A stretch of DNA of 54,085 nt. Source: a virus. Its lineage: Duplodnaviria > Caudoviricetes. Positions 39-52,162 of the stretch are shown piece by piece. Under the pieces are notes generated by a model, which was not told the origin of the DNA, ran no database searches, and saw only the letters and a program-made list of their open reading frames with translations. The translations under genes and the position numbers were made by a program. How positions within the stretch are numbered: the first letter of the stretch is position 1; every line of letters starts with the position of its first letter. The DNA is taken from IMG/VR virus record IMGVR_UViG_3300014502_000008, positions 1 to 54,085 of that record. One strand, 5' to 3'.

Positions 39-87
39 GTAGCGAGACGGGGGAATGATCCCCGGACCTCATGATTATGAATCATGC
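39..87 (-). repeat. att site: 3' half of tRNA-Met(CAT) duplicated by integration
   Basis: Reverse complement GCATGATTCATAATCATGAGGTCCGGGGATCATTCCCCCGTCTCGCTAC gives the anticodon arm (CAT), T-arm and acceptor 3' strand. The D-arm and 5' half are absent. Confidence 0.85.
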
Positions 88-11612: not shown

Positions 11613-11646
11613 AATGCTGTTTTTAAATAGATTTTTAGGTTTGAAG

Positions 11647-11672
11647 AAAAAAAGGGGTGTGGTTAGCACCCC
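11647..11672 (-). terminator. Terminator after major capsid gene
   Basis: GGGGTG-7nt-CACCCC followed by T7 on the minus strand. Confidence 0.75.
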
Positions 11673-11688
11673 GTCTTTTTATGTGTTA

Positions 11689-18173: not shown

Positions 18174-18592
18174 ACTTCCGAGTACTTAGAAATAAGAAAC
18201 AACTCCTTGACTACTGTGAATATCTTATGAAGTCCAGGCTTCCAAAAAAGGTAGCAGATCAGGATATTTACCCTTTACGGTCTCTGGAATCAAACGCATA
18301 TTATTGGGGAATCGTTCTGAAATATATATCAGACGCAACAGGAGATTCCCAGGAGAAATGCCATGACGGTTATAAGTTGTTATTTAATTTCAATTACGAC
18401 ATTGAATACAATCCTAAGACAAACATGTATGAATGGGTAATGGGAGTTAAGTCAACAGCTAACCAAGATGATAAAGTTTTTTGGGATTTTGTTATGCGTG
18501 TGCGTATTGATGGTGAGCTTGAACATCATATCGTTATCCCAATGCCAAATGAGGTATTTGTTAATGAGCTTAAATTTGAAAAAGAGATATGA
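18170..18592 (+). CDS. NinB/Orf-like recombination protein
   Basis: RSLESNAYYWG and KSTA motifs; follows ssb. Confidence 0.65.
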   Translation: MNFRVLRNKKQLLDYCEYLMKSRLPKKVADQDIYPLRSLESNAYYWGIVLKYISDATGDSQEKCHDGYKLLFNFNYDIEYNPKTNMYEWVMGVKSTANQDDKVFWDFVMRVRIDGELEHHIVIPMPNEVFVNELKFEKEI

Positions 18593-18996
18593 ATCAAAAC
18601 CAGATTAACCAGGAGCTTGCGAAGATTAAGAGCTGGTACAAGCATAATTGGCCCTTATGTATCTTCTGTAACCACCGTGTTAAGGGTGGACAGCTTGCAC
18701 ACCTGATCAGACGATCATACACCAGGGGTAACTTGCACATTTTGAAGCTCAACACCGGGCTGGCCCATCATGACTGCCATGAATTGTTTGATAACAACAT
18801 GACACAAGCTCAGTATTTACCCCGGATGGTAGAGGTTTTGTATATCATCTGGACCCAGGACAAGGAGTATTTCAATCAGATAGCTGATAACTTCCCGGAG
18901 CTGACCCCGGCAATAGAACAATTCCCGAACGTGCCGATCATGCCTCTGGAATATCATGGAGAATTATTATCTTTACAGTACTTACTCCAGTTTTAA
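18589..18996 (+). CDS. HNH/NinG-like zinc nuclease
   Basis: CIFC...AHLI...N...HHDCHELFD. Confidence 0.55.
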   Translation: MNQNQINQELAKIKSWYKHNWPLCIFCNHRVKGGQLAHLIRRSYTRGNLHILKLNTGLAHHDCHELFDNNMTQAQYLPRMVEVLYIIWTQDKEYFNQIADNFPELTPAIEQFPNVPIMPLEYHGELLSLQYLLQF

Positions 18997-19044
18997 TTTC
19001 ATCTTTTATTTGCGTCGTATCACATAATTTCCGACATTTGATAT

Positions 19045-19116
19045 GCGGCATTTCCTTCCAATTGACTTGACTTGACAAAACGCAGCGAGACTTTCAATCA
19101 GGAGATGCCGTTTCTT
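19045..19116 (+). ncRNA. Dispersed hairpin element copy 1
   Basis: GCGGCATTTCCT...GCAGCGAGACTTTCAATCAGGAGATGCCGTTTCTT. Confidence 0.6.
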
Positions 19117-19193
19117 AAATTGTTTGAAATCAGCCAAGCGAGTACCTACTATCTTGATTTATTGAATTATTTATGACTAATCCACTAAGGATC

Positions 19194-19661
19194 TTAATTA
19201 GATAATGCTTTACCCACCTTTTCGATTACATTTGGAATACTGTCAATAAAGAAACCTAAGAAAAATGATAAAAGAGCAGATGCCACCAAGGGTTGAATTC
19301 CTTCCAATTTAGCAAAATGAGTAATAGAAATAATTGCAGAAAATATAGCCATTACAATAATCAAGAAAGGATAAAATCTGAAATACCTCAATCGGATTTT
19401 TTTATTTTCTAATTCCTCATTATCTGTAAGAGCTAAATTCGTAACTTTCTTAATGTGATTGATGCAAACCTTTAGAATTAATAAGCAAAATCCGAGTAGA
19501 GTAAATGCCAAACACCAGAGATAATATGTCCAACCAATTATACCATCGAAGATAAAGATAATAAGTAAACCTATAATTAGCATTATAGCAATAACAGAGT
19601 AACTTACTGCAAACTTAAATCGAAAGTCATCTTTAATTTTTGAGGTTTCCATAAGGTTCAT
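19194..19661 (-). CDS. Accessory membrane protein (about 4 TM)
   Basis: AT-rich; four hydrophobic segments. Confidence 0.7.
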   Translation of the reverse strand: MNLMETSKIKDDFRFKFAVSYSVIAIMLIIGLLIIFIFDGIIGWTYYLWCLAFTLLGFCLLILKVCINHIKKVTNLALTDNEELENKKIRLRYFRFYPFLIIVMAIFSAIISITHFAKLEGIQPLVASALLSFFLGFFIDSIPNVIEKVGKALSN

Positions 19662-19722
19662 TTTATAATGGTTAATTAAATCTATTTTGAAAGTTACGAA
19701 ATAATTCTGACCTTTGATATCA

Positions 19723-19802
19723 GCGGAATTTAATTCAAACTACTTTAACGAGTAGAATCATTGCGAGACATTTCTATTCCAACCAGGGGATGCCGCTTCT
19801 TT
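19723..19802 (+). ncRNA. Dispersed hairpin element copy 2 (diverged)
   Basis: GCGGAAT...GCGAGAC...CAACCAGGGGATGCCGCTTCTTT. Confidence 0.5.
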
Positions 19803-19931
19803 ATTCACTTCAAAACAAATAAAGGGTCTAATAATATAAACTTCAAGATAAATTAGGTTTTAAAATGTTATAATAAACGTTCCCTAAATAACTACAGAAT
19901 TGTTAATTATGTTTAAGTAGAAATATTTTTT

Positions 19932-21197
19932 TTAGTTCACTTTACTGTTTTCAATTAGCAACTTAGCAATTTCGATTTTTGCCTTTACAAGTTCTCCTTT
20001 ATCAATATCCTCACTGTCTATTGTATCCAATATTTTCATGGACATCCCAACGTTGTTAATCTTTTCTAAGGTATGAGTATATTTTAATGCTTGTTTAACT
20101 GTAGATCTAAATATAAAGAGAAACGTCGTTCCAATAAACTCTGTTAATACGCCACATGAAATTGCAATAATTGAAATGTTTTTATTGCTCCCAATGAACG
20201 ATAGTAAAATTCCCAAACCTATAATCAAAAAGCCAACTATCATTACTCTAATACTTAGTTGATAAATTGAATTAATATGTTCAAGGTTTTTTTCAAAATA
20301 TTGCTGTAGAGTGAGATATGCTACATCCCACGAAGGCTTTATTTTATTTGGTTCATTTTTTAATTGCTCTTTTGCCTCTTCAATATCTTTCTCAGTTTCC
20401 TTATTACTATTTGGTTTCTTGTTTCCGCTTATTAGCATTAATAATAATATGATAAAAGTACCTGGAAAAAACAACCATGGACCATAATTATAAAAAAATT
20501 CTTTGGTAGAAGATGTTTCTGAAATAAAGTTATCTAATATAATCCCATAATAACTATAAGTGCTCCTGGGTATTTTTTGAAGAAGATTAAATTTCAATTC
20601 ATCTTTATCAAGATACTTTCCTTTATTTACAATTAGAATTGAATCAGAAAGGGCATTCGATATTGGTTTAAGACCTAAGCTATCCAAATAAAAATATGTA
20701 TTAGCAGATTTATAAAATATATTTGTACCATGCTTTTCGATTTCTTTAAGATTTTCACCTTTAAACTTTAATAAGATTTCGTAATTAAGAGATTCCGAGG
20801 ATGAGAAAGGCTTGTTAAAATTTTCAATCAATATCTTACGTGTTGAAGGGCTAATATTTACAGTATCTAAATTATTATCCAAATATATGTACCCTTCATT
20901 TTTCCCTTTGATAGCTCTTTTAACAAAATCACCATATTCTTTTAGTTCTGAAAAACTTAAGATGTTATTTATTTCCGTCACTATACTGTCTTGTGTTAGA
21001 TGCCTCACATTAAGTATCGATTTTAATTTAATAGTAGTTTCATTGTAATGAGAGATTCGAGATTTGTCGAAATGATAGTAATCCTTCATAAATAGTGGTA
21101 CGATTAAGAAGACCAGGCCAACTATCGCGCATAAGGCTGATAACAAAAAAAAGATATCGAAGACAGTATTTTTGATCTTTACTTTTGTGATTTTCAT
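19932..21197 (-). CDS. Membrane protein with C-terminal TRADD-N-associated-like 2TM domain
   Basis: N-terminal TM, soluble domain, TM, then PSWDVAYLTLQQYFEKNL followed by two TMs. Confidence 0.6.
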   Translation of the reverse strand: MKITKVKIKNTVFDIFFLLSALCAIVGLVFLIVPLFMKDYYHFDKSRISHYNETTIKLKSILNVRHLTQDSIVTEINNILSFSELKEYGDFVKRAIKGKNEGYIYLDNNLDTVNISPSTRKILIENFNKPFSSSESLNYEILLKFKGENLKEIEKHGTNIFYKSANTYFYLDSLGLKPISNALSDSILIVNKGKYLDKDELKFNLLQKIPRSTYSYYGIILDNFISETSSTKEFFYNYGPWLFFPGTFIILLLMLISGNKKPNSNKETEKDIEEAKEQLKNEPNKIKPSWDVAYLTLQQYFEKNLEHINSIYQLSIRVMIVGFLIIGLGILLSFIGSNKNISIIAISCGVLTEFIGTTFLFIFRSTVKQALKYTHTLEKINNVGMSMKILDTIDSEDIDKGELVKAKIEIAKLLIENSKVN

Positions 21198-21423
21198 TGG
21201 ATAATCTTATTTATTTGCACTGTGTTTAAGTTTAAATGCAATATATCAAATAATTTCCAAAGTTTACTAAGGAATATTCCCTTCCTCTTTTGATACATCA
21301 CACAGTTAGACATGTTAGATCAGGGACCTCTGCTCTTACGAAGAATATCTTGTTTAGATTAAAAATTTCTTAACAAATCTATTTTTCTGGCCCCGGGACG
21401 TTTTAAATTTGAATTAAAATATT

Positions 21424-21494
21424 AGCGACACCCCTTTCCTTAAGCACGAGGAAATGCAGCGAGACAATTCAATCAAGGGGTGTCGCTTTTTTTT
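21424..21494 (+). ncRNA. Dispersed hairpin element copy 3 (compensatory stem)
   Basis: AGCGACACCCCTT/AAGGGGTGTCGCT perfect 13-bp stem, GCAGCGAGAC core, T-run. Confidence 0.6.
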
Positions 21495-21503
21495 AAAATT
21501 ATT

Positions 21504-21779
21504 CTATTCGCTCCGTAGTTTCACATAAAGTTCATTAATTAAATAATTACATTTAGGACAACTGTGCGTAGCATTTGGAATTCCCTCTGTACGGCAGAGT
21601 GGACATTTCCATGTTTTCTCATCTCTGCTAAGGAACAGCATGGACAACAAATAGAAAGATTTTCTTATTCTTGAAACGTTAATACATAGATAAATAAAAC
21701 ATATCAGGATTATTAGTCCAATTATTCCTGAAATTATTGAAGTGATTAAATAAATGGTGCTAAAAGATTCTATTTCCAT
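21504..21779 (-). CDS. Small TM plus zinc-ribbon protein
   Basis: One TM, then WKCPLC...CPKC. Confidence 0.7.
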   Translation of the reverse strand: MEIESFSTIYLITSIISGIIGLIILICFIYLCINVSRIRKSFYLLSMLFLSRDEKTWKCPLCRTEGIPNATHSCPKCNYLINELYVKLRSE

Positions 21780-21898
21780 AGTTTTACAAATTTATTTTTC
21801 TTAAAATAATTATATATCACAATTTTTAATATTAGGGTGAGCTTAATTTAATGTCAATATTAAATTGTTTTAAATCTGAATTATTCTAAAAATGAAAG

Positions 21899-22822
21899 TT
21901 ATTGTGGCGTAATAGATTCCGTGTTCACATATAGTTCTTCTGTTGATCCTTCTGGTCTTACAATACAATAACTCAACCTGCTTTTAACAAGGTAGACTAC
22001 ATCATTTTTATGCAAATACTTAATCTGGCCTGAAAGAACCATTAATTCAAGAGCTTGCATATCCTTATTTGATGCACAATTAATCATCATATCAAAATTT
22101 TCCTTACTTGTACCAGCAAAAATGACATCCCTATTTATAATATACCTACCAGTATAATTTGTTTCATTCCTATTAGATCTAGAATATGAAGGCGTTGTTT
22201 CTCTAGAATCTGACGCCGGTTTACAGATCTTGAAAACTACTACAATTGCAACTAAAACAAAGCCTATTTTTAACCAGTTGCCTATATTATCAAATAGACC
22301 CACTACATCTACTCCCTCATCCTCATCATCACTCTCAGGCTTCAATCTGAATCCACAACTATGGCATTTCTCAGAAGAGCTTATTATGTCTGCTTTGCAT
22401 TTAGGACACCATATGATATGCAAGTCATTAATATTCTTATGTGTAAAATCAAATCCACAATAACTGCACTTCAGTGAAGCTTTAGTTATGTTTCTTTTAC
22501 AGTTAGAACATTGCTTCAAATCTTCCTCATAAACAATTACCTCGGGGGCCATTTTATACCCACAATCGGGGCATCTTTTAGAATCTTCAGGTATTTTGTT
22601 TTTACAGTGAGGACACTTTATGAGTACTTTATCTTTAATTAATTGATATCCACAAAGCGGACAAAAGTGAGCAGCCTCTGGTATACTCTTGCTGCATTTC
22701 GGGCAGGAAATTTGCTTTTCTTCAGCCTCTTTCTGAGAGATAATCTTAAATCCGCAATGCAAACAGAATAGAGAATCGTCAGGTATTAACTTATGACAAT
22801 TGGAGCATTCTATATCTGCCAT
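21899..22822 (-). CDS. Five-zinc-ribbon membrane-anchored protein
   Basis: Ten CxxC motifs, an acidic linker, a TM and a C-terminal SH3-like domain. Confidence 0.8.
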   Translation of the reverse strand: MADIECSNCHKLIPDDSLFCLHCGFKIISQKEAEEKQISCPKCSKSIPEAAHFCPLCGYQLIKDKVLIKCPHCKNKIPEDSKRCPDCGYKMAPEVIVYEEDLKQCSNCKRNITKASLKCSYCGFDFTHKNINDLHIIWCPKCKADIISSSEKCHSCGFRLKPESDDEDEGVDVVGLFDNIGNWLKIGFVLVAIVVVFKICKPASDSRETTPSYSRSNRNETNYTGRYIINRDVIFAGTSKENFDMMINCASNKDMQALELMVLSGQIKYLHKNDVVYLVKSRLSYCIVRPEGSTEELYVNTESITPQ

Positions 22823-22940
22823 AGTTTATCATTCATATTATCAAATATAAGCAATTGCGTTGAAAATAAATATTATCTGACTTGAATTAATTATTTGGAT
22901 TTTGTTTGCAATTTATCCTTAAAATTCTGAAATTTACTCT

Positions 22941-23028
22941 GCGGCATTTCCTTCCATACGAGACATTGACTTTCGACATCAACTTAGGAACGCAGCGAGA
23001 CTTTCAATCAGGAGATACCGCTTTTTTT
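22941..23028 (+). ncRNA. Dispersed hairpin element copy 4
   Basis: GCGGCATTTCCTTCCA...GCAGCGAGACTTTCAATCAGGAGATACCGCTTTTTTT. Confidence 0.6.
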
Positions 23029-23046
23029 ATTAATTTTAAAAGGGTA

Positions 23047-23841
23047 ATGGAAACTAAAAGTAGAAGACCCTCAATTTTAGATATACTTGTTAGATATCTT
23101 ACATTTTTCTATTTGATATTTGTAATAATTGGATACTTAAGTAGCTATCTTTATTACATACAATTTAGAATTGATATTTCAAGTTACTTTACTCTTGAAG
23201 ATTATATTACTTCTTTTTTTGATGTTTTACCAGGACTTATTATTGGAGCTCTTACCTTATTAATACTCGGAATATTAAACTATAATAAAATAAAGAAAGC
23301 AAAGGCAAGAATAGAATCACATGTTAATGATGAAAATATTACTAATACAATTTATAGTCAAATTGACGAAAAAAATCTGAATTCATTTAGATGGGCACTT
23401 ATTGTTTCAACTATTTGCTTTGCCATTATTATATTGGTCCTAATTTTTACAAGAAGTAAATTGTTTTTTTTGTTTCTAATTCTATCTATCTGGTTTGTGT
23501 GTTTTTCAGGAGTATTCACTTTAATTTATTTTTTAAAAGTTAATAAAGCATTGGATTTTAACTTTGAAAAAATTAGTATTATAGCAGAAACTTTATTATT
23601 TATTTTATTTATTCAGTGTGGTTGGGGAACCCTGAATGGATTTTTTACTTTAAAATCCTCATCATGGGTTCCCAAGACTACGATAAATATTAATTCAGGA
23701 GAATCAATAAATAGCTCTGATAGCATCTTATTTTTAGGTGTTTCGAAAGACTATGTTTTCTTATACGACAAACTTGATCAAAAATCTATAGTTTTTAATA
23801 GATTAAATATTATTTCAATTGAATCTGAACAAAATAAATAA
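23047..23841 (+). CDS. Accessory polytopic membrane protein
   Basis: Likely start ATG at 23047 (METKSRR); about five TMs and a C-terminal beta domain. Confidence 0.7.
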   Translation: METKSRRPSILDILVRYLTFFYLIFVIIGYLSSYLYYIQFRIDISSYFTLEDYITSFFDVLPGLIIGALTLLILGILNYNKIKKAKARIESHVNDENITNTIYSQIDEKNLNSFRWALIVSTICFAIIILVLIFTRSKLFFLFLILSIWFVCFSGVFTLIYFLKVNKALDFNFEKISIIAETLLFILFIQCGWGTLNGFFTLKSSSWVPKTTININSGESINSSDSILFLGVSKDYVFLYDKLDQKSIVFNRLNIISIESEQNK

Positions 23842-23871
23842 GAAGCGAGGAAATACTATGCATTATTAAAT

Positions 23872-23948
23872 TGTCATTTTCTCCCTTCACAAACATTGAC
23901 CTGATAGCAACACAACAAGACTTTCAATCAGGAGATGCCGCTTTTTTT
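23872..23948 (+). ncRNA. Dispersed hairpin element copy 5 (5' arm degenerate)
   Basis: CATTGAC...AGACTTTCAATCAGGAGATGCCGCTTTTTTT. Confidence 0.5.
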
Positions 23949-24055
23949 AACCCGCTTTGTCTTACTGAAGATGAAATCTTAATGACTTACTTTAGGCAAG
24001 ATCATTCATTCAGGGAGACCAGGTTGTGGACTGCTTAAGATACTTTTTAATCAAA

Positions 24056-24586
24056 TTAGTAACCAACAATTTCGTTCTCATCTGGTATTTCAAATTTATT
24101 TGAATTATAGAAATACCTTATCTTGGTTACTTGCCTGAGATATCCACCATAACCATTCTTAGATCTATATGTTGCTAAAAAATAAACACAAAATTTTGTA
24201 CTGTTATTAGTCTTAAACCGTTTTAAAGAATCAATCACAGCCAATTCGGATTTTTTTATAATATTAAAACTGTCTATCTGAGTTTTGTATCTTACTATTT
24301 CTTTTTCAATGTTGACATCTTTTTTCTCAGCAGACTCTGCATTACTTAAGGCAACATTTATTAAGTCAATAATTTTTTCAGTGGATTGAATGCTACGTTC
24401 TCTTAGTTTTATTGGTATGTCACTTTCAGTAACAATTTCAGTAATGATAAAAGATTCTCTTTTATATGAATCAGGATCATTTAATTGAGTTAGTAGGAAT
24501 TTTTCAGCTTTCCGTATAAGCATATTATCTTGACTACAACTGAAATGAAGTAGAAGAATGATAAATAAAAAAATAAATCGCTTCAT
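24056..24586 (-). CDS. Putative lipoprotein
   Basis: MKRFIFLFIILLLHFSC lipobox-like; LNDPDSY and YRSKNGYGG motifs. Confidence 0.7.
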   Translation of the reverse strand: MKRFIFLFIILLLHFSCSQDNMLIRKAEKFLLTQLNDPDSYKRESFIITEIVTESDIPIKLRERSIQSTEKIIDLINVALSNAESAEKKDVNIEKEIVRYKTQIDSFNIIKKSELAVIDSLKRFKTNNSTKFCVYFLATYRSKNGYGGYLRQVTKIRYFYNSNKFEIPDENEIVGY

Positions 24587-24606
24587 AATTTTAAGATTAT
24601 CTATAA

Positions 24607-26250
24607 TTATAAATCAATTTTTATCTGTGTATCTGTATCAGTTGACTTCTTCTCAGCCTTCTTAAAAGTTTCAAACTTTGATTGTGGAATTAACGGACGT
24701 TTACCCTCAAGTAAATCCTCCACTGATATAACTTGAATCTTATCGCAATGAGCATTATTATAATCATCCGTAAACTGTCCTTCCTTCTTAGCAATTACCT
24801 GCATATTCCTTGTTATGTAATCTTTAAAACAAATAAAGATACCCATAGCTCCCTTCTTATCATTAACAGTCATGATGAAATGGTTTAGTTGTGTAGGTGA
24901 AGCATTACCACTTTTAACCTCCATCATAACAATGTACTTTTTATCATATATCGTGAAGGTTCTATAACCATCATAACCCATTTCGTTCCGGCGTTCGTTA
25001 GTTATGCCATGTAATAGAACTTCAATAATCCAATCCTCAAATTCTAATCTTCCACCCTTAACATTATTTGCAAGTTCCCTGGCTGAATCTATATCTTTCG
25101 GGAAGCCATGAATTTCTAAGGTCTTCATTATTTCATCGCCATAGCAATCAACCAATCGCTTTGTTATAAGTTTTACGGCGAGATGAGAAATATCAACACC
25201 AATCCATTTGCGTTTTAATTTTTCAGCGACAGTAACTGCTGTCCCACAACCACAGAAAAAGTCTGCAATAACATCGCTTTCGTTTGAGCTTGCTGTTAGT
25301 ATTTGTTCTAACAAGGCTTCGGGTTTTTGAGTAGGATACCCCATTTTTTCATTATGCCAAGAACGTAAAGGCTCAATATTGTCCCAAATATCTTGAGTAG
25401 GTAACCCTTTTGATTCATCTAAATATCTTTTACGTCTCGGTATATTATTTTTAGTATAATAAATCTTCCCTTGATTATCTAATTCTATCATAGTTGTCTC
25501 AGGACATCTCCAAAGCCCATTTATCCCTTTCCACTTATAATTATATCCACCTCCCGATAAGCCTTTTGCGCTCAAGTTATCCGACATCCATCTTCTCCCA
25601 TCTGAATCTTTATAGCGATAATATGTATCAGTATAATCTTTCGTATAAGGTTGATAAGTCTGTACCCATTTATTTTTGTCAGTTGCGGTATAATATAAAA
25701 TCACATCATGTGCATTACCAAAACCTTTAGCATCACTATGGGCACTTGTTCTTTTCCAAATTATCTCATTCCTAAAATTCTTTTCCCCAAATATTAGGTC
25801 ACATAATATCTTTAAGTAATGGCTCATTGTTGGATCACAATGCAAATAAAAACTTCCAGTATTTTTTAATAATCTGTGCATATACCATAACCTTATAGCC
25901 ATTGTAACCAAGTATGATATTGCACCTTTTGAGATATTAGTATTATCAAGATTCTTGAGGAAGTTATAAAGGCTTATGTCTAAATCTGAAAGCTCATTCA
26001 AAGTGTCCATATAGGAAACATTCGACCAGGTATCAGCAAAAGCCTCTTTCTGTGCAGTTGAATCAGTTAAGTCAACACTTTCAAACAGTACATTATAATT
26101 CCGTTTTGAGTTAAAAGGTGGGTCTATATAAATCAGGTCAATGAATCCTTGAGGATGCTCTCTGTATAACTGTTTTAGAATATCAAGATTATCACCGAAG
26201 TAGAGTTGATTTTTAGAGGGGAATTTTGGTGTTGGCTTGTTAGGGGTCAT
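24607..26250 (-). CDS. DNA N6A/N4C methyltransferase (beta class) fused to a PD-(D/E)XK/Mrr-like domain
   Basis: IYIDPPF, YPTQKP, DFFCGCGT, C-terminal GYDG...EVKSG; likely start at 26250. Confidence 0.88.
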   Translation of the reverse strand: MTPNKPTPKFPSKNQLYFGDNLDILKQLYREHPQGFIDLIYIDPPFNSKRNYNVLFESVDLTDSTAQKEAFADTWSNVSYMDTLNELSDLDISLYNFLKNLDNTNISKGAISYLVTMAIRLWYMHRLLKNTGSFYLHCDPTMSHYLKILCDLIFGEKNFRNEIIWKRTSAHSDAKGFGNAHDVILYYTATDKNKWVQTYQPYTKDYTDTYYRYKDSDGRRWMSDNLSAKGLSGGGYNYKWKGINGLWRCPETTMIELDNQGKIYYTKNNIPRRKRYLDESKGLPTQDIWDNIEPLRSWHNEKMGYPTQKPEALLEQILTASSNESDVIADFFCGCGTAVTVAEKLKRKWIGVDISHLAVKLITKRLVDCYGDEIMKTLEIHGFPKDIDSARELANNVKGGRLEFEDWIIEVLLHGITNERRNEMGYDGYRTFTIYDKKYIVMMEVKSGNASPTQLNHFIMTVNDKKGAMGIFICFKDYITRNMQVIAKKEGQFTDDYNNAHCDKIQVISVEDLLEGKRPLIPQSKFETFKKAEKKSTDTDTQIKIDL

Positions 26251-26308
26251 AATCAGTAAATTATAATCAAATCTACAAACATTTATTAGATTAGCATATA
26301 TCATAAAC

Positions 26309-26337
26309 AAAAAACCCCTCCAACTCGTACCGGGGGT
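26309..26337 (-). terminator. Terminator after portal gene
   Basis: ACCCC...GGGGT stem followed by T6 on the minus strand. Confidence 0.65.
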
Positions 26338-26374
26338 CAAACCTAAACCTAACCTATGAAAAAAAACTATATCC

Positions 26375-28372
26375 TTATGCTGCTTGCTTTTGTGGTATTC
26401 CTATTGCCTGCTGTGCCATAGCCATTGCCTTAGGATTAGCCCCCTGCTGTGCCTGTGTCATTACTTCTTCCGGTATCTGTCCGGGCATTCCCTGAGCCAT
26501 TTGCTCCTTACGCTGTTTAACTGCTCCCAGGAGCTTATCAGCAAACGGTAAGGAGGTTTGTTCCAGGAACATTTCAAGGTCAATCATCTGGCCTTCTAAC
26601 AACTTCATAAGAGTTTCATCAATTAGCTGACGGTAAACCGGCGTATCAGTCCCCTGTGTTACTGCCAGATCAAAGTCAATATTCTGTACCAGTTTTGGAT
26701 CGTATAGTTTAGAATCCTGATTGACAGACCTGCCATTGATAGCCAAATACCTGGGCTCTTTGTAGTACTGAACAATAACCTTCAATGCTTTCGTGTCTCG
26801 CTTCTGTCTGAAGTGCTGGAACGTCTGCATGTAGTCAAGGGTGTTCATGGTTGCGTTCTGTGCCTCCTGTGCGTACAAGGATGAAGGAGTACCGGAACCG
26901 GCAGTCTTACCCTGGACAGCTCCATGTATCCCGGAAATCTCCTGCATAAGCTGCATCTGCAGGGCAAGCATTTCATTGATACCTATGTTTGTGCTGTTGG
27001 CACTTATCTGTTGTGGCATCTGCGTATGGTTCTTGCTAGGGACGTAAGTAATAATCCCATTGAACCGGGTCCATTCCCTAGCAAAGTCAGCCTCCGTCAT
27101 ACCATCCGGGATACAATCTTCCGGTATCATAAGCACACCTTTTGCGGATGCACTCATAATGAAATCCATCATAATGACCAGTCTGTTTATGTACCTCTGC
27201 TGGTCAATGATATCCTCCACGAATCCCCAAACCTCACCATCAAGAAGAGGGTATAAGGTTATGGCGTAAGGGTGTTCCTCATGCTTGTAGGGTGTTTCCC
27301 CTTCAAACAGGGTGTACCCATAAGGAGTAAGAAACTTAACGTACCAGAATTGTTCAAACTTCTCTTCGGCCTCTATCAGGGGTATTTCTTCCTCAGGTAT
27401 GCCCTGCTCTAGTCCTACCCTTAGCCTCTCAGAGTTTTGTTCTGCAATCTGCTTCATGGTACATGAGACAATTGCGTAACTCCCGTCCATAGGGTCATGT
27501 GCATAGATGCGCCACTCTCCCTGGAGCTTCCATATCTCATAAAGCCTTGCCTTGTTCGGGTCCCTGGGATTAAAGAAGTCCATATTGTCAATTCTGCTGG
27601 AATCCAGGCCCCTGTCTGAAAGAAAATCCTTTGTTACCAGGCTGGAATATAGGTCCCGGATTCTTTTTTCATCCTGTGTACTCTTGGCGAACGTGCTTAC
27701 AATGTCATTGACAGTAGTATCAATGATCTCACCGATTAATCGAAGGTCATGGAGCCTTATATCTGACACATCAGCATTGAAAAACATTCTATTGACGTTC
27801 ACGTTCTCAATATACAAGTCCTCTAGGTTGCGCTCCTTCCAGTACTTGTAGCCTACCTTCTGCATCAAGGCTCCTGATATAGCAAACTCTTCAAATTCCC
27901 TTGCATCAAGCTCCTTTGTCATGTTTATCTGGTGCCCTGCCTGAAGGGCATTGCTTAACATCTCAGATATCCCGGCATTTTCCCTGGACCTGGCGATAAC
28001 AACTGACTGAGAAGGATTAGACCGGTATTGTCCAATAAGGTTTTTAACTAGCTGTCTGACCTGGTTTTGCTTCAATGGTACTTTCCCCTGGTTCTTCAGG
28101 TATTGCTCCTCGGTGATGTATCCGTCACCATCCGGGTCTTTAATCTCGTCACTCCACTGGTCCCCCCGGTAGTACTTTCGGTTACGAAGCCTCCGCTTAC
28201 GGAAGTCTCTCATGCTCTCCCAATGCCTTCGGCACTCTTCAAGTAGGTCCATGTTTTGCCGGGTATCTTCCATTGTCACATCTTTGACAAGTTTCAGAAT
28301 GGTCTGCTTACGCATCCCCAGGCTGGTATTGGTGGACTTTCGTAAGTCCTGCTTACTAGTTACTATTCTCAT
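26375..28372 (-). CDS. Portal protein (P22-like podoviral)
   Basis: YYRGDQW, NQVRQLV, IIDQQRYINR, Gln-rich C-terminal barrel. Confidence 0.85.
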   Translation of the reverse strand: MRIVTSKQDLRKSTNTSLGMRKQTILKLVKDVTMEDTRQNMDLLEECRRHWESMRDFRKRRLRNRKYYRGDQWSDEIKDPDGDGYITEEQYLKNQGKVPLKQNQVRQLVKNLIGQYRSNPSQSVVIARSRENAGISEMLSNALQAGHQINMTKELDAREFEEFAISGALMQKVGYKYWKERNLEDLYIENVNVNRMFFNADVSDIRLHDLRLIGEIIDTTVNDIVSTFAKSTQDEKRIRDLYSSLVTKDFLSDRGLDSSRIDNMDFFNPRDPNKARLYEIWKLQGEWRIYAHDPMDGSYAIVSCTMKQIAEQNSERLRVGLEQGIPEEEIPLIEAEEKFEQFWYVKFLTPYGYTLFEGETPYKHEEHPYAITLYPLLDGEVWGFVEDIIDQQRYINRLVIMMDFIMSASAKGVLMIPEDCIPDGMTEADFAREWTRFNGIITYVPSKNHTQMPQQISANSTNIGINEMLALQMQLMQEISGIHGAVQGKTAGSGTPSSLYAQEAQNATMNTLDYMQTFQHFRQKRDTKALKVIVQYYKEPRYLAINGRSVNQDSKLYDPKLVQNIDFDLAVTQGTDTPVYRQLIDETLMKLLEGQMIDLEMFLEQTSLPFADKLLGAVKQRKEQMAQGMPGQIPEEVMTQAQQGANPKAMAMAQQAIGIPQKQAA

Positions 28373-28378
28373 AGGTAG

Positions 28379-31300
28379 TTATTTATTGTGCTTTATGTTT
28401 AATGCTTTAATCTGCTCATTACACTGTTTCATGAGGTCAAGGACCTGGTTACTGCCTTCTGTATCACTAAAATCAATCTCTTTGGATAGCTCTTTGATGT
28501 CCTTGTCGTAACTATTAACTATCTCCTGGTACTCTGCATAGTAGCTATTGCTCTCTGTTCTCTGTACCTGATCGCTTCCCTGGCCTAGCTCTGCCCTCTT
28601 TCCGTATGCTCCAACCAGCTTTTTATGCTTGTCGGACGTCTCTTTCAGATCATAATATTCAGAAATGATATTCCATTTTGCCGGTGGTGTCTCCCGGATG
28701 AACTTATTCACAAATGGCACGTTCTTAAAATCGATTGCTTTATTCGGGTTCATCCATTGTGATAGGGTGGTAAGCAAGTCAGATGCCATAGTCCCGGTGC
28801 CTCCGGTGTAGCCCTGGAAGATATGTTCAATGTATGATGGGTTCCAGTCACGTATCCAGGGGATATCTTTCTCGTTACCATTCTTGTCAGTGTAGAACTT
28901 ATATTGAGTGTCACCGGGGAATATCAGATCGGTAAAGAACTTTATCGCGGGGTTTACATTATCCTTGCCTAGTCCAGAGCTGGCTAGTGAGGCCTCCTGA
29001 TCTTTGGTGAATGGCTCTTTTGCAATCTTAAAGCCCATATAGTTACGGTTTGATGCATTCTCCATGAATGGTTTAATGACTGTTGGCATAATCGGAGCCA
29101 GGCTAAATTCACCTTCCTGAAAGAATCCTCCCAGGTCAATAGGTGTGAGGGATGAAACGAAGTTAACAAGCCCTGCCTTCATCCCGTCTTTAGCTGTCAT
29201 TTTGCCCTGTGAGATATCAAATACTATCGAACCTACACTCTTAAAGCCTCTCCAAAAGTGGGGCAGTGGTATGCTTATGTACTTACCCCCCTTGTCTCCG
29301 CTGTTAAAATACTTCAAGAGGTTTGGGATAACCAGGTAGTTCTGGCGCATGTATGGATTGATGTTCTGGTATTTTTCATCATCATCGTCACCGTCAGTTG
29401 CAGAGTTCATGAGGGCCTCAAGGAATCCCGCTACCATGAAAGAGACTGCAACGGTAGTAAACCTGGCCGGCGCATCCTTCGCCAGTTTGGAGTTCTTCTG
29501 TAAGGACTGCAAGGCTACATTGAAGAAGGCATAGAGTGAATCCCAGGCCTTGCTTCCTTTGCCTTTCCTGTTGAAGTTTACAGAGGCTTCCTTCGCATCA
29601 TAAGCTGCGTCCTCGTCTGACTTACCCTCTTGTATTGCTGATATGAACACTGAAAACCTTGTAGCATCCTCAAAGACCTGGTTCCAATGTGTGATAGCCT
29701 GGGCAGCATTATAGACTGCTTCCCTTGATTCACCTTTCAGTGTACCCCTGCTTACCATTCTCCTGATCTCCCTGTTCAGATCCTTTTCAATCTCTTCCGG
29801 GGTCTTATTATGTGAATAGCCGGTAGCTGCTCCTGCATTATAAAACCTTTCTAACATCTGGTCCTCTTCGTTATTCATATTAGGCTTGCCTAGTATGTGC
29901 CTTATGATAGCTGGGAAGGACTTTTTATAATTTACAAGGACCTTAGTCCCGGAATTACCCTTTATCCATTGGGTCAAGGTGGCTTCTGGTGCATCCCTCA
30001 TGAAGTTAGTGAATGGGAATACTACATTCCAGCTGGTCATTGTAGCCTTCATGAAGTTGTTTATCTGGCCTATAAAAGCCAATCCCTTATTCATATCCCT
30101 GGCATCCGCAATACCACCAAGTATGCTATGGTACATGTAATTCTGCTTATTCAAGGCCTGAGCAACCGGCAGGTATTTACCTTTGAAGATCATAACGATA
30201 TCACCATTGAGTTTACGGACTGTTACCTCATGCTCGTCAGCGTTCATCGGGGCTCTTAATTTCTGGTGTTCCCTGTATATTCTGGTTTGTACCCTTCCTT
30301 CATCCCATAATGCCTGGGGTGGTCTTTCGATTGTCGGTTCATATTCATAAGTCCCGTCTGGCAGGTCAATCCTGATATAGTATAGCTTCTTAATGGTAGC
30401 CATATCGTGTATGTCGTCATTCGCCAGGTTCTTGAGCAGGAGCTTTAACATTGAACCCTTAACCTCATTATCAACCTGTTCGCCTATGGCTTGAAACTGT
30501 GTATTAAGGACATATGCCAGTGGATTGTCGGCTAAAGACTTCCTTCCCTCAGCATGTTTGAGTGAGTTGGAAGTACCTGAACCCTTTGTGTAAACCAGGC
30601 CCTTAGCTGCTCCCTCTCTCCATCCTCTGAGTGGCACGAAGTACTTGAACTTATCAAGGTATTCCTGTTTCTGTTCAGGAGATATCCGTTGGGCTACTTC
30701 CCAGGTATCAAGAATGTTTGATGTGGCAGTTTTCATATTACTCCAAAGATCATCTATAAGCTCTTTAGGTGCCAGCCCTTCAAACTCTTCTACTATATCC
30801 TTAGCCAGCTCTTCCGGGTTGGTGTATTTACTTTCCTTCCCTGCCAATGGCATCACCCCTGAATAGTCTTTATTCTCAATAGCCTGAATCAGTTCTTGCC
30901 TGGATTCTTCATACTGCTTGGTCTTTGTCCTTATCTGGCCTGCAGAAGCCTTCGGATTATCCTCTAGCCACTTGTTAAGTATCCCTGTCTGATCGTTAGT
31001 CCATTCTGTCAGCTCTCTTTCTCTGAATGACGGGTTACGTTCCAGGGCATGTTTGGCAATAAGGTATGGTAGTATATTCTCTCCTGTGAATCCTGCCTTG
31101 ATCAGCTTAGAAACAGATTTCAGTACTGGCTTCATCTTTAGCTCAGAGAAGTCCTTATACAGCTTCTCCTGCCTTCCGAATGCCAGGCTTATGTCTCGGT
31201 ATGATTTGGCATCATTGGTCTGCTTGCCTCCCTTCTTTAACATGGTTTCCTCAAACCAGCGTACTGGCAGGTTCATATCCTGAAGATATTCCCGGATACC

Positions 31301-34300
31301 CTGTAATGTCTCGTGCAGGCTCCGCTTTGTCTCCTTCTCAGCTGCAATATCGGTAGCTGTCTGCAATGGGCCTTCTTCATCTACCAACTTGGAATGTACC
31401 CCTGATCCTGGTCCATCAGTCCCTCCCTTGAATAAGACATAATCAGAACTACCGTATATGATTCCATCAATACCAGCCCTGCTAAGGAATTGTGAGGCTG
31501 CCTTAGTAGTTCCCAGGGCCTTAGTGAGCATGTCATATACTTTTGATGCTGGTGTTACGTCCCAAACTGCAAGCTCAAGGGCTGCATTGTTTATGCCCTC
31601 TGCCTTCATCTGGTCAGCTATCTTAACAGTCTGTGCTGCGGTAAGGTGTTTCTTCGTATTAAGCATGTCCTTACCGGCAATCTTCGTCATATCAGAGCCA
31701 TAATTGCCCCAAATGTCTGACCGGACCGGATTGATTGACCTGTCATAAACAGTCATGGCGTCCAGGTAGTCTTCCGCTGTTGTGAAGTCTTTACCTTTGG
31801 GCTTTGCCTGCTTCTCAAGGTTCTTTTTGCTTTCCCGGAGTAAGCTATGAATATCGCTAGGGGTAAAGTCCACCTTGAAGATATTGCGTAACAGTTCCCT
31901 GATCTTGGATATTACCCGATTAAGCAATGTTGGGTTGATATCCTTCTCTGCCATGTCTGCCAGGTACTCTTCAGCAATCAGGTCCGGGTCTTTCGATCTG
32001 TAAACCTTACCAATCCGGGATATTTCTTCCTGTTCCATGCTGTCATACACATCGTTTAGCAGCTTCTTGTGTGCTGTCTCTCCTAGTAGTGTCCTTAATC
32101 CTTTGTGCGCTACTGCCTCATGTAAAACTGTTACCAGGGCCTCCTGGAAGTTCTTTGTTTCAGCAAGGTTTATCCATATCTCACCTGTTTCATCAACATA
32201 CAAGCCCGGTACCCGCTTGTTTCCTGCTGTCTTTTTAAGATAATCCTGAACGTCACTCGGGAACTCTGATCTGTTACGTGCAAAACTGACCTTAATACCT
32301 AGCCTGTTGGCAAGCAATTCAACCCTTCCCCTGATTTCCCTTTCCTTCTGGCTCTCCTGTCCGTTGTTCTTTGCTTCCAACCATGCAACCGGGTCAACCT
32401 CATTAATAATTGGCTGTGCCTGCACTTCTGTTGTAGGGGAAAACAGTACATCACCAATATTGAATAGTAATTTCTGTCCCTGATTCTCTTTCTCGGCTGT
32501 TGTGGCTGTTTGCTCCATCTTTTTGAGCATGTCATTCATCCCGGCAAGAGTATTATCATAGTCCTGCAGAACCCTTTTTATGTTCTCAATGGAACCATCC
32601 TGAGGGATATCAAACATTGAAGCCTGTTTAACTACTGGCTCTGGTGTCCCGAATAGATCAAGGCTGCTCTGGCTGGCTAATCTCCTGGCTAGCTCGTTCT
32701 TCTTAGCATCCCTGGCCTGTACGGTATTTCTAATCCTGCGCTTTATGTCCTCAATCTCTGCTCCAAGAGAAGGGCTGTCAGTGGCAATACGAAGGTGTAC
32801 CCCTGGATCGTCAGGATCTTCCTCTGGTCCGTTATCTTCTAGGTCGCTAAGTTCATTCTCCAGGTCTTTGAGGCTTCCCCCTTTCACATTCTCTAGGTCC
32901 TTGCTCGCTGCCTGGTTCTCACCCTGCATCTTAACCTCTAGTTCTGCAACCTCTTTGGCAGTTTCGTCCAGCTTGGCCTGTTTATCGAATGGCTTGGTGA
33001 GAAATTCTTCAAACTCAGGTATGTTAGCCTCGTTCCGCTTCAAGTATTCTTGAAAATACTCAACCTTTTCAGGATATATTTTTAACTGATTCGTAAAGGA
33101 TGTCAGGAACCCTCCCCCTGTGGTGAATGAGCCTGAAATATCTGTACTCCGGGACGTTGAGCCTTCTGGTGAATGGTCATAGAAAAACTTGTCCGGTCCG
33201 ATATTGTAAGTAACTCTTATCGGGGCTGCATACCCATTGACCTTAATCATTAAAGGATTAGCATTGTCCGTTGTACTCTTCTTGTAAGCAATGTATTTCA
33301 GCATTTCCACATCAAGCCTCTTGATCATAGCCTCTTTGCCTTCTGCTTTCGTGCCTCCCACTGTTACACTGGTTACTTCATTCTTAGGGAAGTCCTTAGC
33401 AAATAGCCCTATGGAATGCTTTACCTCTTCAAGTATCCTGGTGTATGTAACCACTGACTGCTTCGCATTCTTCAGGTTGCTCTTTGCCTCAATAAGACTT
33501 CGTTCATGGTTGAGTTTGGCTGTCTTTAGCTTTCGTAAATCAAAGGACTTCTGTTGCCAAAGGATAGCGAACTGACTGCCTGATAACTGGCTCATCATTG
33601 CATCGAATGACTGATCAGTCTGGTTATTGTCCGAATCATCGTTCATCTCCCTGTCTAATCCTTCGGCCTTCATCATCTGATTGATGAACTTCTGCTTAAT
33701 GGCTAGTCTCTGGTAGGCTGTTGCGTCCAGTGTCTTTTCAACTCCGTATGTCAGCACTTCAACCGGAAGTCCTAACTGTGAATGGCTATTCCCCTGTCGT
33801 ATAATCCTGCCATTGCGCTGTTCAAACTTCATCGGCATATCTGGTGCATCAATATGATGAGCAGCTTTAAGAAGGTCCTGAATATTTACCCCGGTGCCTA
33901 ACCTGGGAGTACTCCCCATTATAAACCTTAATTCTCCGCTACGCACTTTCTGGAAAATACCTTCCAGCTTCGTCCCCTTTTGATCTGATATTATTTCAAT
34001 CTCATGAGCTGGTACGCCCTGAGCCATGAGCTTCTGTTTAATATCATGATAAAGATTAAACCTTTCTTGTCCTGTCCTTAAATTCGGGGACTGGTACATG
34101 TCTGAGAAAATCGCCTGTGTCCCTAAGTAATCTGCTGATTTGTGATACAGCCTCATTGCCTCCTTGACAACCATGTTCGTCTTGCTCCCTGGGTCGTCAG
34201 GATTGTCTGGACTTAACAGTCTAAGGTCAATGGCTGCTTGCTTGGCTCTCCCGAATATTACAATAGGGATATGCCTCATAGCTCTCTTCTGTTTACCGGT

Positions 34301-37300
34301 AAGTTTCTCCCACTCAGCCAGCGTTCTCTTAAATACATTCATCTGTGCCTGTAATGGTTCGGTCTGTGGCATTATAACCTTTGTGAACTCACCGTTTTTT
34401 AGCTTGGGTATATTATTGCCCTCTTTGAACTCCTGCACATCATCGGTAAGAACGACATCAGCAACGGACCGGAAAGCCTTTAATAGTTCAGGTGCATTGA
34501 TATATGATTTGAACCTGTTTACGATCTTGAAGTTCCCGGAAGCGTTAAACTCAAGGGATGGCTCTATGCTTCCGAAGGTCCGGGCAAAATCGTCAAACCT
34601 TTCAATCCTGTATGCTTTTAATACATCAGGTGACAGGAACTTCATTACAGTCCATAACTCAGCCATTGTATTTGTTATCGGTGTGCCGGTAGCAAATACA
34701 ACATTCTTTTTCCCCATCTGCTCATGAATGAACCTAACCTTCATGTGAAGGCCTAAAGCTCTTTGGGACCCTGTGGTATCAATACCTTTGACATTGGTCT
34801 GTGCTGTGGCAAAACCTAGCTTCTTGTAAGCGTGTGATTCATCAACAAACAAGGCATCGACACCCATCTTCTCAAACAAGACAACATCGTCTTTGCGCCT
34901 GGAAGCCTGAGTTGTTATCTTAGTTGTTACTGCTGCTCCTGCTTTTGCCACGTCTTTAACAGACTTACTCCTGCCTTTGGGCTTCCCTAAGTTCACTAGG
35001 TCCTCTTCCAGTGCCTCAATAGCCTTCCTGGTATTCTTGGCTGCAACATTGTTATAAGCCCCATCGTCAACCTCTGCGAGTACATCTTCCAGCTCTGCAA
35101 TACGTTCCCTTATATACTCTCTCTCTCTAGCAGGATCATCAGGAATGAAGTTCAGGAAGCTCTGAGGAATTATGACTGCATCCCAATCGCCATAAGCTAT
35201 TTTATTAAGGAGCTTCTGCCTGCTCTCGGATTCCATCTGGTTCTTTGTCGGCACAAGTATCTTTGCCCCAGGGTATAGCTTTTTAAAATCACCCCCAAAC
35301 TGTTCAAGGGTGGAATTGTTGACCACCATTAAAGGTTTCTTTGCTATTCCTAGCCTACGCATCTCCATTGCAGCGGTAATCATGGTATAAGTCTTGCCTG
35401 TCCCAACCTGGTGAGCCAATAAGGTAGTGCCTCTTAATATCCTGCCTACTGCTTTGCTTTGATGTGCTCTCAGTGTTATATCCGGGTTTGCACCTGGGTA
35501 TTGTTTGAATGAAGGCATGGAGTAATTCTTCTCTACATAATCATTGTACTGATCGTTATAGATTGTCTCCAATGTTTCCATTTCTGTTTTCTGGTTCGGC
35601 ATCCAGTTAAGGAATAAGTCTGAAATCTCATCCATCTTACCCTGAGCTGCTGCTGTGGCTTCCGGGTCCCTTCTCTCTGTCCTCTGTCTGGTAACCGGAT
35701 CGTATTCCCGTTTCATTACGGTAGGGGTATGCAGGTTGAGAATCTTATCAATAAGTTCAATAGCTTTAAAATCAGTGGTTGCGTAAGTTCCCTGATTCTT
35801 TGCATTGTATTCATTACCTTTGTTTGATATCAACCAAGTACCGGTTCCCTGGTTAAAGAAAACCTTGCAGTCAACATCGATAGTCTCTTTAATAAACCTT
35901 TGGACTATATGACCTGGTATCCAGGGAGTGCCTAGCTTGTATTTAATCATCAAGCCCGGTATGTCTTTAGGGATAACCTTCTTGAGTGCGTCAACATTCT
36001 TCTTATAATCCGGATTATCTTCAACCAGGGCCTCTGCTACCTTTAACTTAGTTCTTACATACCCTGACAAGTAGGTCTCCTTATCCTCTAACAAGGCATT
36101 GGACGGATTTATAAATGCCAGACCTTCTTCCAGGAGCTTGTTTGTTGCTGTTTCTTTGTCGGTCCCTGTAAGTGAGGCTATGTAGTCAATATCTAGCTTG
36201 CCCCGGTAACTCATAGATACATTCAGGGCATCTGCAACATTTTCAGCTTTGGTAGGTTCTTCTACCGGGTAGTTAATCCTTTTTGAGAATATGTCACTCT
36301 TTGAGATCTCATATCTACGATACACCCCGCCAACCTTATTTGTCAGTATCTTATTTTCTACATCTTCCAGGGCTGACACTAGGTTGAACTCTGAATCATC
36401 TTCCAGAAATTCAAGTTTCTTATTCCGGTTGAATGTACCATAAGCCTTTACAAAGGAATCATAGGCTGTGTTTAGCTTGCTGCGTGTATCCTCAATGTCC
36501 TGCTCTGAGCTGTCCTTGCTCATTTCACTATCAAGGAGGGCCTTAGCTAGCTGTTTCAGATTTAGATACTCCCTTGTTATGGTCTTGTAGGGTACTGACC
36601 TCTTGCCTGAAGTGAAGTTATCATTATTCCAGGCTACTGGATGAAGCTCACCACCATTGACCTCATAGATCGTATCGTCCCGGTCAATTATTGTCCCTTC
36701 TTTGTCCCCTACCTCTGAGCCCTTTGCGCCTACCTCTGCTTTTGTAGCTACGGTAATGTTCTCCGGAAGTGACTTAATAGCCTCTTCCAAGAGTGCCTGG
36801 GTGTCTTGACCTTTGTCCGGGGTCAGTGTTTCGGAATCACCTGAGTAAAGCCCTCCTTTATTCACCTGGTATGCCAATACCATCTTGCCTAACATCATTT
36901 CAGGGTGTTTGATGTAGTACTCATTAACATCAATACCAACCTCTGCCCCGTTCTGGTTTTTTGTCTTGGTTAGTTCTGCTACTGATCTGAATGGTTCTGC
37001 GTATGGAGAAGGTGTCGTGCTTAGTCTTTTCTGAAATATCAGCATGTCGCTGGTTACTTCCGTCCCTGCGTTCTCTGAAAAGGTGTTGTTTGGCAGTCTT
37101 ATTGCTCCGATAAGGTCTGCATTACCTTCTGCTGCTACCCACTCCCTGAACTTTGCACTTGCAGCATTATCCATTGACGATTTAGAGGTAATGAACACCC
37201 CAATTCCCCCGGCTTTAAGTTGCTTAATGCCTTTTGCAATGAAATAGTTATGAAGTGAGAAGCCTTTAAGGTCCTTATTCTTTGCATCAAATGGTGCAGT

Positions 37301-52151: not shown

Positions 52152-52162
52152 AAAACCCTGTT

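Follow-up and report, generated by a model that had tools for sequence, protein, structure and literature searches.

What are the five hairpin elements that stand between small AT-rich accessory genes in the Caudoviricetes record IMGVR_UViG_3300014502_000008, and what might they do there? The stretch analysed is the entire virus contig, 54,085 bp long (hereafter the window). Its initial annotation, made from the letters alone, proposed five same-strand copies, here named E1 to E5, and read them either as a multicopy phage small RNA (sRNA) family or as sites at which cargo genes are swapped, after the manner of the promoter-stem-loop (PeSL) modules of T4-like phages. All five copies are present on the + strand where they had been placed, and a covariance model built from them (R1) matched E1 to E5 and nothing else in the record, with E-values of 1.5e-21 to 5e-14; the next-best match in the window was the reverse strand of E3 (E 0.0035). 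A 23-mer from the 3' part of the element, GACTTTCAATCAGGAGATGCCGC, occurs three times with at most one mismatch each, compared with no occurrence in 100 shuffles in which up to three mismatches were allowed. Of the seven intergenic gaps between 18996 and 24607, five contain an element, as had been counted. From comparison with sequences outside the phage, the five copies look like members of an uncatalogued RNA family of one Bacteroidales genus, and the sRNA-family half of the initial interpretation is better supported than the cargo-swap half.

Copies of the family share a common architecture: a covarying stem of 10-13 bp, a conserved GCAGCGAGAC box and a U-rich tail (Table 1). The closing stem had been described as covarying from the phage copies, in which 90% of 60 cells are paired and double changes occur at four pairs, all due to E3; the wider family bears this out. 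In a MAFFT alignment of 29 full copies, which was not fitted to structure, the 12-bp stem (P1) is paired in 92.7% of 343 cells, compared with 36-59% in slid controls, and nine of the 12 pairs show double changes (26 cells), a result matched by none of 500 shuffles. Reading P1 on the reverse strand lowers pairing from 92.7% to 86.0%, and G-U cells from 34 to 11. Family-wide, the same loop is closed by at least six unrelated stem sequences, and an inner hairpin with the loop UAGCAC is carried on at least eight different stems among the copies that keep it, being missing in many mobile copies. Inspection by eye found T-rich tails in 35 of 36 unique copies, and a rough script that undercounts finds at least five T in eight positions for 37 of 51 copies. 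The claim that the G-T pairs work only on the + strand is true of E1 (12 pairs against 10) and E2 (nine against seven), but not of E3, which pairs 12/12 on either strand, nor of E4, which pairs 11/12 on either owing to its C-A mismatch. By RNAfold the z-score is strong for E1 (-3.0) and E3 (-4.8) alone, and the stem of E5 is not formed, though 10 of its 12 pairs are kept by eye. A small peptide was considered in the FabG-linked copies described below, which have an 11-codon frame beginning ATG-CAG-CGA-GAC, and was rejected: at least 12 mobile copies have ACG, AAG or TTG in place of the ATG, and the frames end at differing places.

Searches outside the window place the family in bacterial chromosomes. 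Four pattern scans of viral contigs returned 0 loci, blastn of E1 against 50,697 phage records gave no match, and R1 found none in five of the six portal-relative phage loci (L007 was left out). A degenerate core pattern identified 21 loci in metagenome contigs and six in species genomes. In 18 of the 21, R1 confirmed a total of 26 copies, a locus of 2-4 kb having at most three. Of the six, five were in Bacteroidales or Bacteroidota metagenome-assembled genomes, which contained 15 R1 matches, 1-6 each. A second covariance model (R2), built from the alignment of 29 full copies, was positive in 37 of 41 genomes of the Bacteroidales genus of one carrier, in 13 of 41 of its family and in 2 of 151 of its order, the genomes being sampled and many of them incomplete. 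Within the genus, 27 genomes had one match, four had two, two had three and four had 7-12. According to sample labels the carrier lineage consists of uncultured Bacteroidales from peat and permafrost. The description as a phage sRNA family therefore stands with regard to the structured RNA appearance, the promoter, the U tail and the absence of an Rfam match, but the family is not phage-specific, being found in chromosomes of this genus.

The initial annotation had named a known Rfam family or a host-wide repeat as outcomes that would speak against a new element. No Rfam 15 family matches: the gathering-score scan of the whole window returned tRNA-Met alone, the E-value scan of 18900-24100 (E up to 10) gave four chance-level matches, none on an element and none to FopS/GibS, and eight host loci gave tRNAs and chance matches and nothing else. 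A literature search by box sequence plus 'Bacteroid', with no other name, found nothing related. The family is a host-wide repeat in the letter only, as the host copies behave like a conserved gene and not like a generic repeat.

Two forms of the element can be told apart. The chromosomal form has the stem GCAGGGCGCC / GGCGCCCTGC (family-level search sequences), with the fully compensated variants GGGTCCC/GGGACCC, GGACGCC/GGCGTCC, GGAGGCGGTAC/GTACCGCCTCC and GGGTGACGCAT/ATGCGTCACCC, and an interior with the UAGCAC-loop inner hairpin and unpaired AAUGCAGCGAGACAUAUUUAUUCCACAC, followed by the U tract. A gene for a 248-aa short-chain dehydrogenase (FabG-like) precedes the element in nine loci, its stop codon 24-29 nt before the stem; the identity is based on Pfam in L045 and L049 and on the conserved 3' coding end in the other loci. 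Five more loci have an upstream open reading frame (ORF) of 245-248 aa, recognized by length. The genes downstream of the chromosomal copy vary (M48 peptidase, tRNA genes, others). In L065, L066 and L070 (~1425-1600) the copy is followed by two tRNA genes within ~15 nt, and the RNA copy and both tRNAs are thus probably co-transcribed. The mobile form, that of the phage copies, has the stem GCGGCATTTCCT / AGGAGATGCCGC and the loop end UUUCAAUC. Intermediates exist: E3 carries the chromosomal inner hairpin, and in E2, L058 and L071 the AUUUAUUCCA loop is found on stems of mobile type. The mobile-type 3' arm AGGAGAUGCCGC (23010-23021) matches AGGAAAUGCAGC (21449-21460), which spans the 3' strand of the inner hairpin and the start of the box, at 10 of 12 positions; it is possible that the mobile stem arose by internal duplication.

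A conserved promoter-like block, which the initial annotation overlooked, lies immediately upstream of E1, E2 and E4. In the mobile form of this block, TTTG and a gap of 19-20 nt precede GAAATTTG, GATATTTG or GACATTTG; in the chromosomal form they precede TATATTTG or TATCTTTA, TATATTTG (chromosomal) and GAAATTTG (mobile) being the motifs of the two subfamilies; in most full copies it ends 2-11 nt before the stem. The sigma-ABfr consensus described in PMC7366714 consists of TAnnTTTG at -7 and TTTG near -33, and the block fits a putative Bacteroidota sigma-ABfr-type promoter. NAnnTTT[G/A] is found 2-11 nt before P1 in 36 of 51 copies, compared with 7.4% of random positions in the same loci, and the -7-like motif plus TTTG 19-21 nt upstream in 18 of 51 copies, compared with 0.34% of random positions; E1, E2 and E4 have both boxes. 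Given that the promoter is upstream of the stem, its own transcript would include the terminator. A G+C-rich stem stands directly before the U tract, as in an intrinsic terminator. Sigma-70 promoters inside the loop (TTGAC repeats) were also considered and rejected, the spacing being variable and sigma-70-like sites being at chance level.

To see how the elements sit among genes, neighbours within 400 nt of 56 copies were recorded. The upstream gene is co-oriented in 31 of 47 cases and the downstream gene in 29 of 49, while a convergent gene lies downstream in 20 of 49. Four of the five phage copies are among these, an arrangement in which an element makes sense only as a free-standing RNA or as a terminator. 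A layout of full unit, gene and 3' half recurs (E4-gene-E5, L023, L018, L024), and six 3' halves sit after a gene. In four fetched host regions with arrays, 18 of 18 matches at E<=0.1 (15 of them at E<=0.001) lie on one strand per locus. As in the phage island, the genes among these arrays stand in both orientations; they are of ordinary chromosomal or defence type and include def, ruvX, glycosyltransferases, ComEC, restriction-modification genes and one integrase; a phage-type integrase lies 4.5 kb from one host array. Three copies in L078 (9457-9848, - strand) lie back to back with no gene between them near def and ruvX, and elements of a second genome (L048) are likewise near def and ruvX, which suggests that this region is a recurrent hot spot.

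All-versus-all blastn of the loci showed that the element is usually the sole DNA in common. Between L015 and L028, a stretch of 218 nt that runs from the GCAGCGAGAC box into the following gene shows 91% identity, with unrelated sequence upstream. The phage gene 19194-19661 together with the E2 promoter resembles host locus L046, most columns being identical up to the -7 box (by eye, not computed) and identity falling from the -7 box and 5' arm onward; the gene product is 71% identical over 69 aa to L046/L052 (tblastn). L012, L022 and L028:1987 have chimeric-looking arms, the 5' arm being of one type and the 3' arm of another. Domain scans of 40 window ORFs detected no integrase, transposase or recombinase. 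Together, the comparisons support cargo swapping at the elements as an evolutionary pattern, with breakpoints inside the elements and an island that is absent from two related phage contigs; a dedicated or active cassette-shuffling system is not supported. The sequence after the E1 tail (19112-19175, CCAAGCGAGTACCTACTATCTTGATTTA) recurs after the copies of L037 and L025 and before the L018:861 promoter, so that the repeated unit is longer than the span from promoter to tail; this extended unit may once have been tandem.

On balance we lean, by somewhat more than an even chance, to the view that the elements are paralogous sRNA or leader transcription units that punctuate the cargo genes and give homology for swaps. 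Each element would be a small + strand transcription unit, with a sigma-ABfr-type promoter (TTTG, 19-20 nt, NAnnTTTG) just before a structured RNA of ~75-95 nt, whose ends would pair as a stem of 10-13 bp followed by a U tract resembling an intrinsic terminator. The mobile subfamily would have multiplied among accessory genes in a few genomes of the genus and entered the phage along with cargo. As punctuation, E1 would close the early operon, E4 would act as promoter and leader, perhaps as a gate, for the sole + strand cargo gene, and the other units would block read-through into convergent genes. The units would release an sRNA whose unpaired GCAGCGAGAC box may bind a target RNA or protein, and the elements, as the sole homology between unrelated cassettes, would be the points where general recombination swaps cargo between host and phage.

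Several observations weigh against this reading. The copies are kin by descent, so that the shuffle and binomial figures overstate independence, and shuffled sequences fold as well as E2, E4 and E5 do. Not all copies are complete: E3 has a -7-like box 13 nt off and lacks the -33 TTTG, E5 has no promoter at all, six copies are 3' halves that retain box and 3' arm but have no 5' arm, and L016:689 and L023:138 keep promoter and stem around a different interior without the box. In the genome search only 29-150 first-look candidates were scored in each genome, and the matches should not be read as copy numbers. The interior of 40-70 nt exceeds the 3-8 nt loop of an ordinary intrinsic terminator, and for this reason a simple terminator consensus scan finds none of the five elements, in line with the earlier remark that the loops are too long for plain terminators. 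A co-oriented ATG follows the tail by 13-22 nt in 12 of 56 copies, E4 included, and the tRNA genes of L065, L066 and L070 are equally close; with no space for a second promoter these genes would be read through the stem, indicating that termination is at most partial, and the short spacing fits a leader or a processed RNA equally well as a free sRNA. A scan of the window found no phage mRNA complementary to the GCAGCGAGAC box; with one mismatch its complement has four matches, three antisense to genes and one, at 39-48 (-), unexamined. The RNA data consist of assembled contigs, which are uninformative on RNA starts, ends and strand. One metatranscriptome run contains 78% of the sampled words. 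A contig joint from 19731 to 23923 has a shorter side of 23 nt and is probably another family member, giving no evidence of circles, and loose contig ends reveal other family members in RNA and DNA runs alike.

Among known systems, FopS/GibS of Bacteroides is the nearest in kind. As described in PMC11697453, it is likewise a multicopy Bacteroidales sRNA family with sigma-ABfr promoters and a terminator hairpin, its members being intergenic, antisense or derived from 3' untranslated regions, and its sequence is reported in one phage. The multicopy, sigma-ABfr-promoter trait would be shared as a functional likeness and nothing more. In FopS the terminator comes after a single-stranded 5' seed (PMC11697453), whereas in the phage elements the two ends pair with each other and the box is in the loop; moreover, genomes of the carrier genus usually have a single match, expansion being exceptional. 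FopS is further characterized by RbpB binding and by repression of susC-like mRNAs. The FopS model (RF04319, gathering score 56 bits) matched the window at 11617-11685 (24.5 bits) and 25286-25353 (11.6 bits), neither of them an element, and gave nothing above threshold in three carrier genomes. The match at 11617-11685 (+; E 0.004) lies inside the structural gene region and is probably due to chance. By analogy, then, the element family resembles FopS in kind and PeSL in logic, and appears to be a member of neither.

The likeness to PeSL raises the possibility, which we consider unlikely, that the elements are pure regulatory and recombination cassettes that express, insulate and shuffle accessory genes, the RNA itself having no function. 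PeSL modules, in the accounts of PMC2839356 and PMC4122927, combine promoter and stem-loop motifs beside ORFans in a hyperplastic region, with chimeric copies, breakpoints inside the motif and no dedicated recombinase known. PeSL systems are also marked by recombination between copies that adds, removes or exchanges ORFans, and by mini-circles that inverse PCR can reveal. In the phage studied here, a promoter and a terminator-like stem adjoin ORFans in a hypervariable slot, the breakpoints fall inside elements, the island is missing from related phage contigs, and the chimeric-looking arms of L012, L022 and L028:1987 would follow. The two differ in that PeSL promoters are described as sigma-70, with the stem-loop between or over the promoter boxes (PMC2839356), while the putative element promoter is of Bacteroidota type and upstream, so that the stem would be transcribed from it. 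The PeSL carriers described are T4-like myoviruses with sigma-70 early promoters, unlike this phage, with its P22-type portal and SU10-type capsid protein. In addition, the elements have a long interior with a conserved box and belong to a family that the host lineage also carries in its chromosomes as a conserved gene. Loop and box are conserved while stems change completely, a pattern consistent with selection acting on the RNA or a bound factor, and most genus genomes have one match which, in the loci read, lies beside a housekeeping gene with no evident cassette swapping. A cis-acting leader or attenuator, in which transcription would halt at the stem and its U tract except where some factor or condition permits read-through and short RNAs are by-products, seems to us decidedly unlikely. 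It would account for the 12 of 56 copies with a closely spaced ATG and no space for another promoter, which include E4 with gene 23047 and FabG-linked copies before the M48 peptidase gene, and for tRNA genes directly downstream. It fits poorly with the convergent gene faced by 20 of 49 copies, four of the five phage copies among them, and with downstream genes that are mutually unrelated. An antiterminator switch was rejected, as no conserved antiterminator pairing was found and the alternative pairing of the 5' arm with AGGAAAUGCAGC is possible in few copies (by eye). More speculative, and in our estimate improbable, is a scheme in which a host core regulatory sRNA beside fabG has become a portable promoter-RNA-terminator 'plug' that moves accessory genes, the five phage copies flooding the cell as GCAGCGAGAC-box mimics that take over or titrate its partner.

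Dispersed hairpins also recall selfish repeats. REP and REPIN elements are dispersed extragenic hairpins with strain-variable copy number, often terminator-like and associated with RAYT transposases, and the mobile subfamily could be a REP, REPIN or MITE-like repeat of no benefit to the phage, spread for instance by an IS200-type Y1 transposase. We consider this very improbable. The jump from one match to 7-12 in a few genomes, the gene-free back-to-back copies of L078 (9457-9848) and a Y1_Tnp gene 2.2 kb from one array would agree with it. However, in REP/REPIN terms the pattern is inverted: the loop is conserved, and the arms, the part that a transposase would be expected to recognize, are variable, and most genomes have one match, at a conserved place in the loci read. 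Beyond the stem, no terminal repeats or target duplications were seen in the flanks (no formal test), and none of the 40 phage ORFs scanned is a transposase. A link to the Y1 transposase was rejected since Y1_Tnp genes are no more numerous in multi-match genomes (1-6 in five genomes with 3-12 matches) than in single-match ones (1-7 in five genomes). An attC-like cassette system, in which the elements are folded-DNA sites for a site-specific recombinase, is the least credible of these explanations, and we give it hardly any weight. Integron attC sites are imperfect inverted repeats of 60-140 nt between single-gene cassettes, all on one strand. The likeness lies in same-strand hairpins that separate genes irrespective of gene orientation, in phage and host, in the tightly spaced gene-element-gene order, and in genes between direct repeats of the 3' half (E4-gene-E5, L023, L018, L024). 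Against it, the arms GCGGCATTTCCT / AGGAGATGCCGC and their variants contain no R'' RYYYAAC or R' GTTRRRY box (by eye, no attC model), as had been observed for the GTTRRRY core; G-U pairs, the U tail and the upstream promoter indicate RNA; no IntI-type integrase is among the 40 window ORFs scanned; and breakpoints fall at differing positions within the element instead of at a single fixed one.

Read as sRNA or leader units, the elements constitute an RNA family that is uncatalogued and has structural support, in a Bacteroidales lineage that has been little studied, and owing to the clear chromosomal type copy beside the FabG-like gene the family can be modelled and submitted to Rfam. After FopS it would be a second Bacteroidales sRNA-like family that also travels in phage, and it looks like a Bacteroidota counterpart of the PeSL idea, with regulatory units doubling as recombination joints for accessory genes. 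Membrane proteins, zinc-ribbon proteins and a methyltransferase are plausible infection-conflict genes, in which case the elements mark places where such genes are exchanged. The kind of element is already known, and its functional role here is a prediction.

The phage itself encodes a P22-type portal, an SU10-type capsid protein and a terminase-like gene (domain scans of window ORFs), and by portal its closest cultured relatives, with 37-42% identity, are Bacteroides phages. The island that contains the elements is AT-rich, its G+C content being 0.27-0.34, compared with 0.39-0.50 in the backbone, and is flanked by the 3' end of the + strand early genes (ORF 18589-18996, ORF135) and the 3' end of the - strand portal gene. 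The island is missing from two related phage contigs: in L004 the portal end and the end of the ORF135 homologue are 79 nt apart, and in L005 the same slot is occupied by ~640 bp of unrelated DNA. Its right edge is set by a hairpin by the portal stop, common to the window, L004 and L005. This hairpin (26314-26375), with an AACCTAA...CCTATGAAA stretch, probably served originally as a bidirectional terminator where the convergent genes meet. As the listed TTG start of the methyltransferase falls inside this conserved hairpin, the true start is probably further in, below 26214. A methyltransferase homologue in contig L026 is 67% identical over 498 aa, aligned from residue 43, and has a family element at the 5' end of the gene.

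Table 1. Elements, their parts and cargo genes of the accessory island (window coordinates).
Feature	Coordinates	Strand	Details
E1, full unit	19009..19125	+	TTTG 19009-19012, 20-nt spacer, GACATTTG 19033-19040; after the last + strand early gene (18589-18996), opposite a convergent gene
E1 stem and box	stem 19045-19056 / 19100-19111; box GCAGCGAGAC 19082-19091	+	T-rich tail; 95 bits; fold z -3.0
E2, full but decayed unit	19686..19805	+	TTTG 19686-19689, 19-nt spacer, GACCTTTG 19709-19716
E2 stem and box	stem 19723-19734 / 19785-19796; degenerate box GCGAGAC 19763-19769	+	9/12 pairs; box followed by chromosomal-type loop ATTTCTATTCCAAC
E3	21404..21494	+	TAAATTTG 21404-21411, 13 nt 5' of stem; no upstream TTTG; A-rich 5' flank gives a bidirectional look
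E3 stem and box	stem 21425-21436 / 21475-21486; box 21456-21465	+	GCGACACCCCTT / AAGGGGTGTCGC; inner hairpin TTTCCTT-AAGCAC-GAGGAAA; T8 tail; fold z -4.8
E4, full unit	22905..23028	+	TTTG 22905-22908, 20-nt spacer, GAAATTTA 22929-22936; 19 nt from tail to ATG of co-oriented gene 23047-23841
E4 stem and box	stem 22941-22952 / 23010-23021; box 22992-23001	+	one C-A mismatch; T7 tail
E5, mainly 3' half	23871..23948	+	degenerate 5' arm 23871-23882; box remnant CAACAAGAC 23913-23921; 3' arm 23930-23941; T7 tail; downstream of + strand gene 23047-23841; 66 bits
AT-rich accessory island	18997..26313 (7.3 kb)		five elements, six small cargo genes and a DNA methyltransferase
Cargo gene, 155 aa	19194..19661	-	no family match; belongs to a module common to phage and host genome
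Cargo gene, 421 aa	19932..21197	-	CyanoTRADDas_TM domain, E 1.2e-12
Cargo gene, 91 aa	21504..21779	-	zinc-finger matches, all weak
Cargo gene, 307 aa	21899..22822	-	repeated zinc ribbons (domain scan)
Cargo gene, 264 aa	23047..23841	+	no significant family match; E4 (full) before, E5 (3' half) after
Cargo gene, 176 aa	24056..24586	-	phrog_21933, function unknown
N6/N4 DNA methyltransferase	24607..26340	-	domain scan; listed TTG start at 26340

Directly upstream of the portal gene, positions 28379-43579 (-) form a single ORF of 5066 aa with LPD38, SNF2/ResIII helicase and InPase domains, which looks like a 'large polyvalent protein'. A second AT-rich stretch, with a G+C content of 0.29 and no family element, occupies 51000-54085 and contains a gene with a NERD nuclease domain (51087-52151), beside which lies the tRNA-Met (50168-50240, -); this stretch may be another accessory region.

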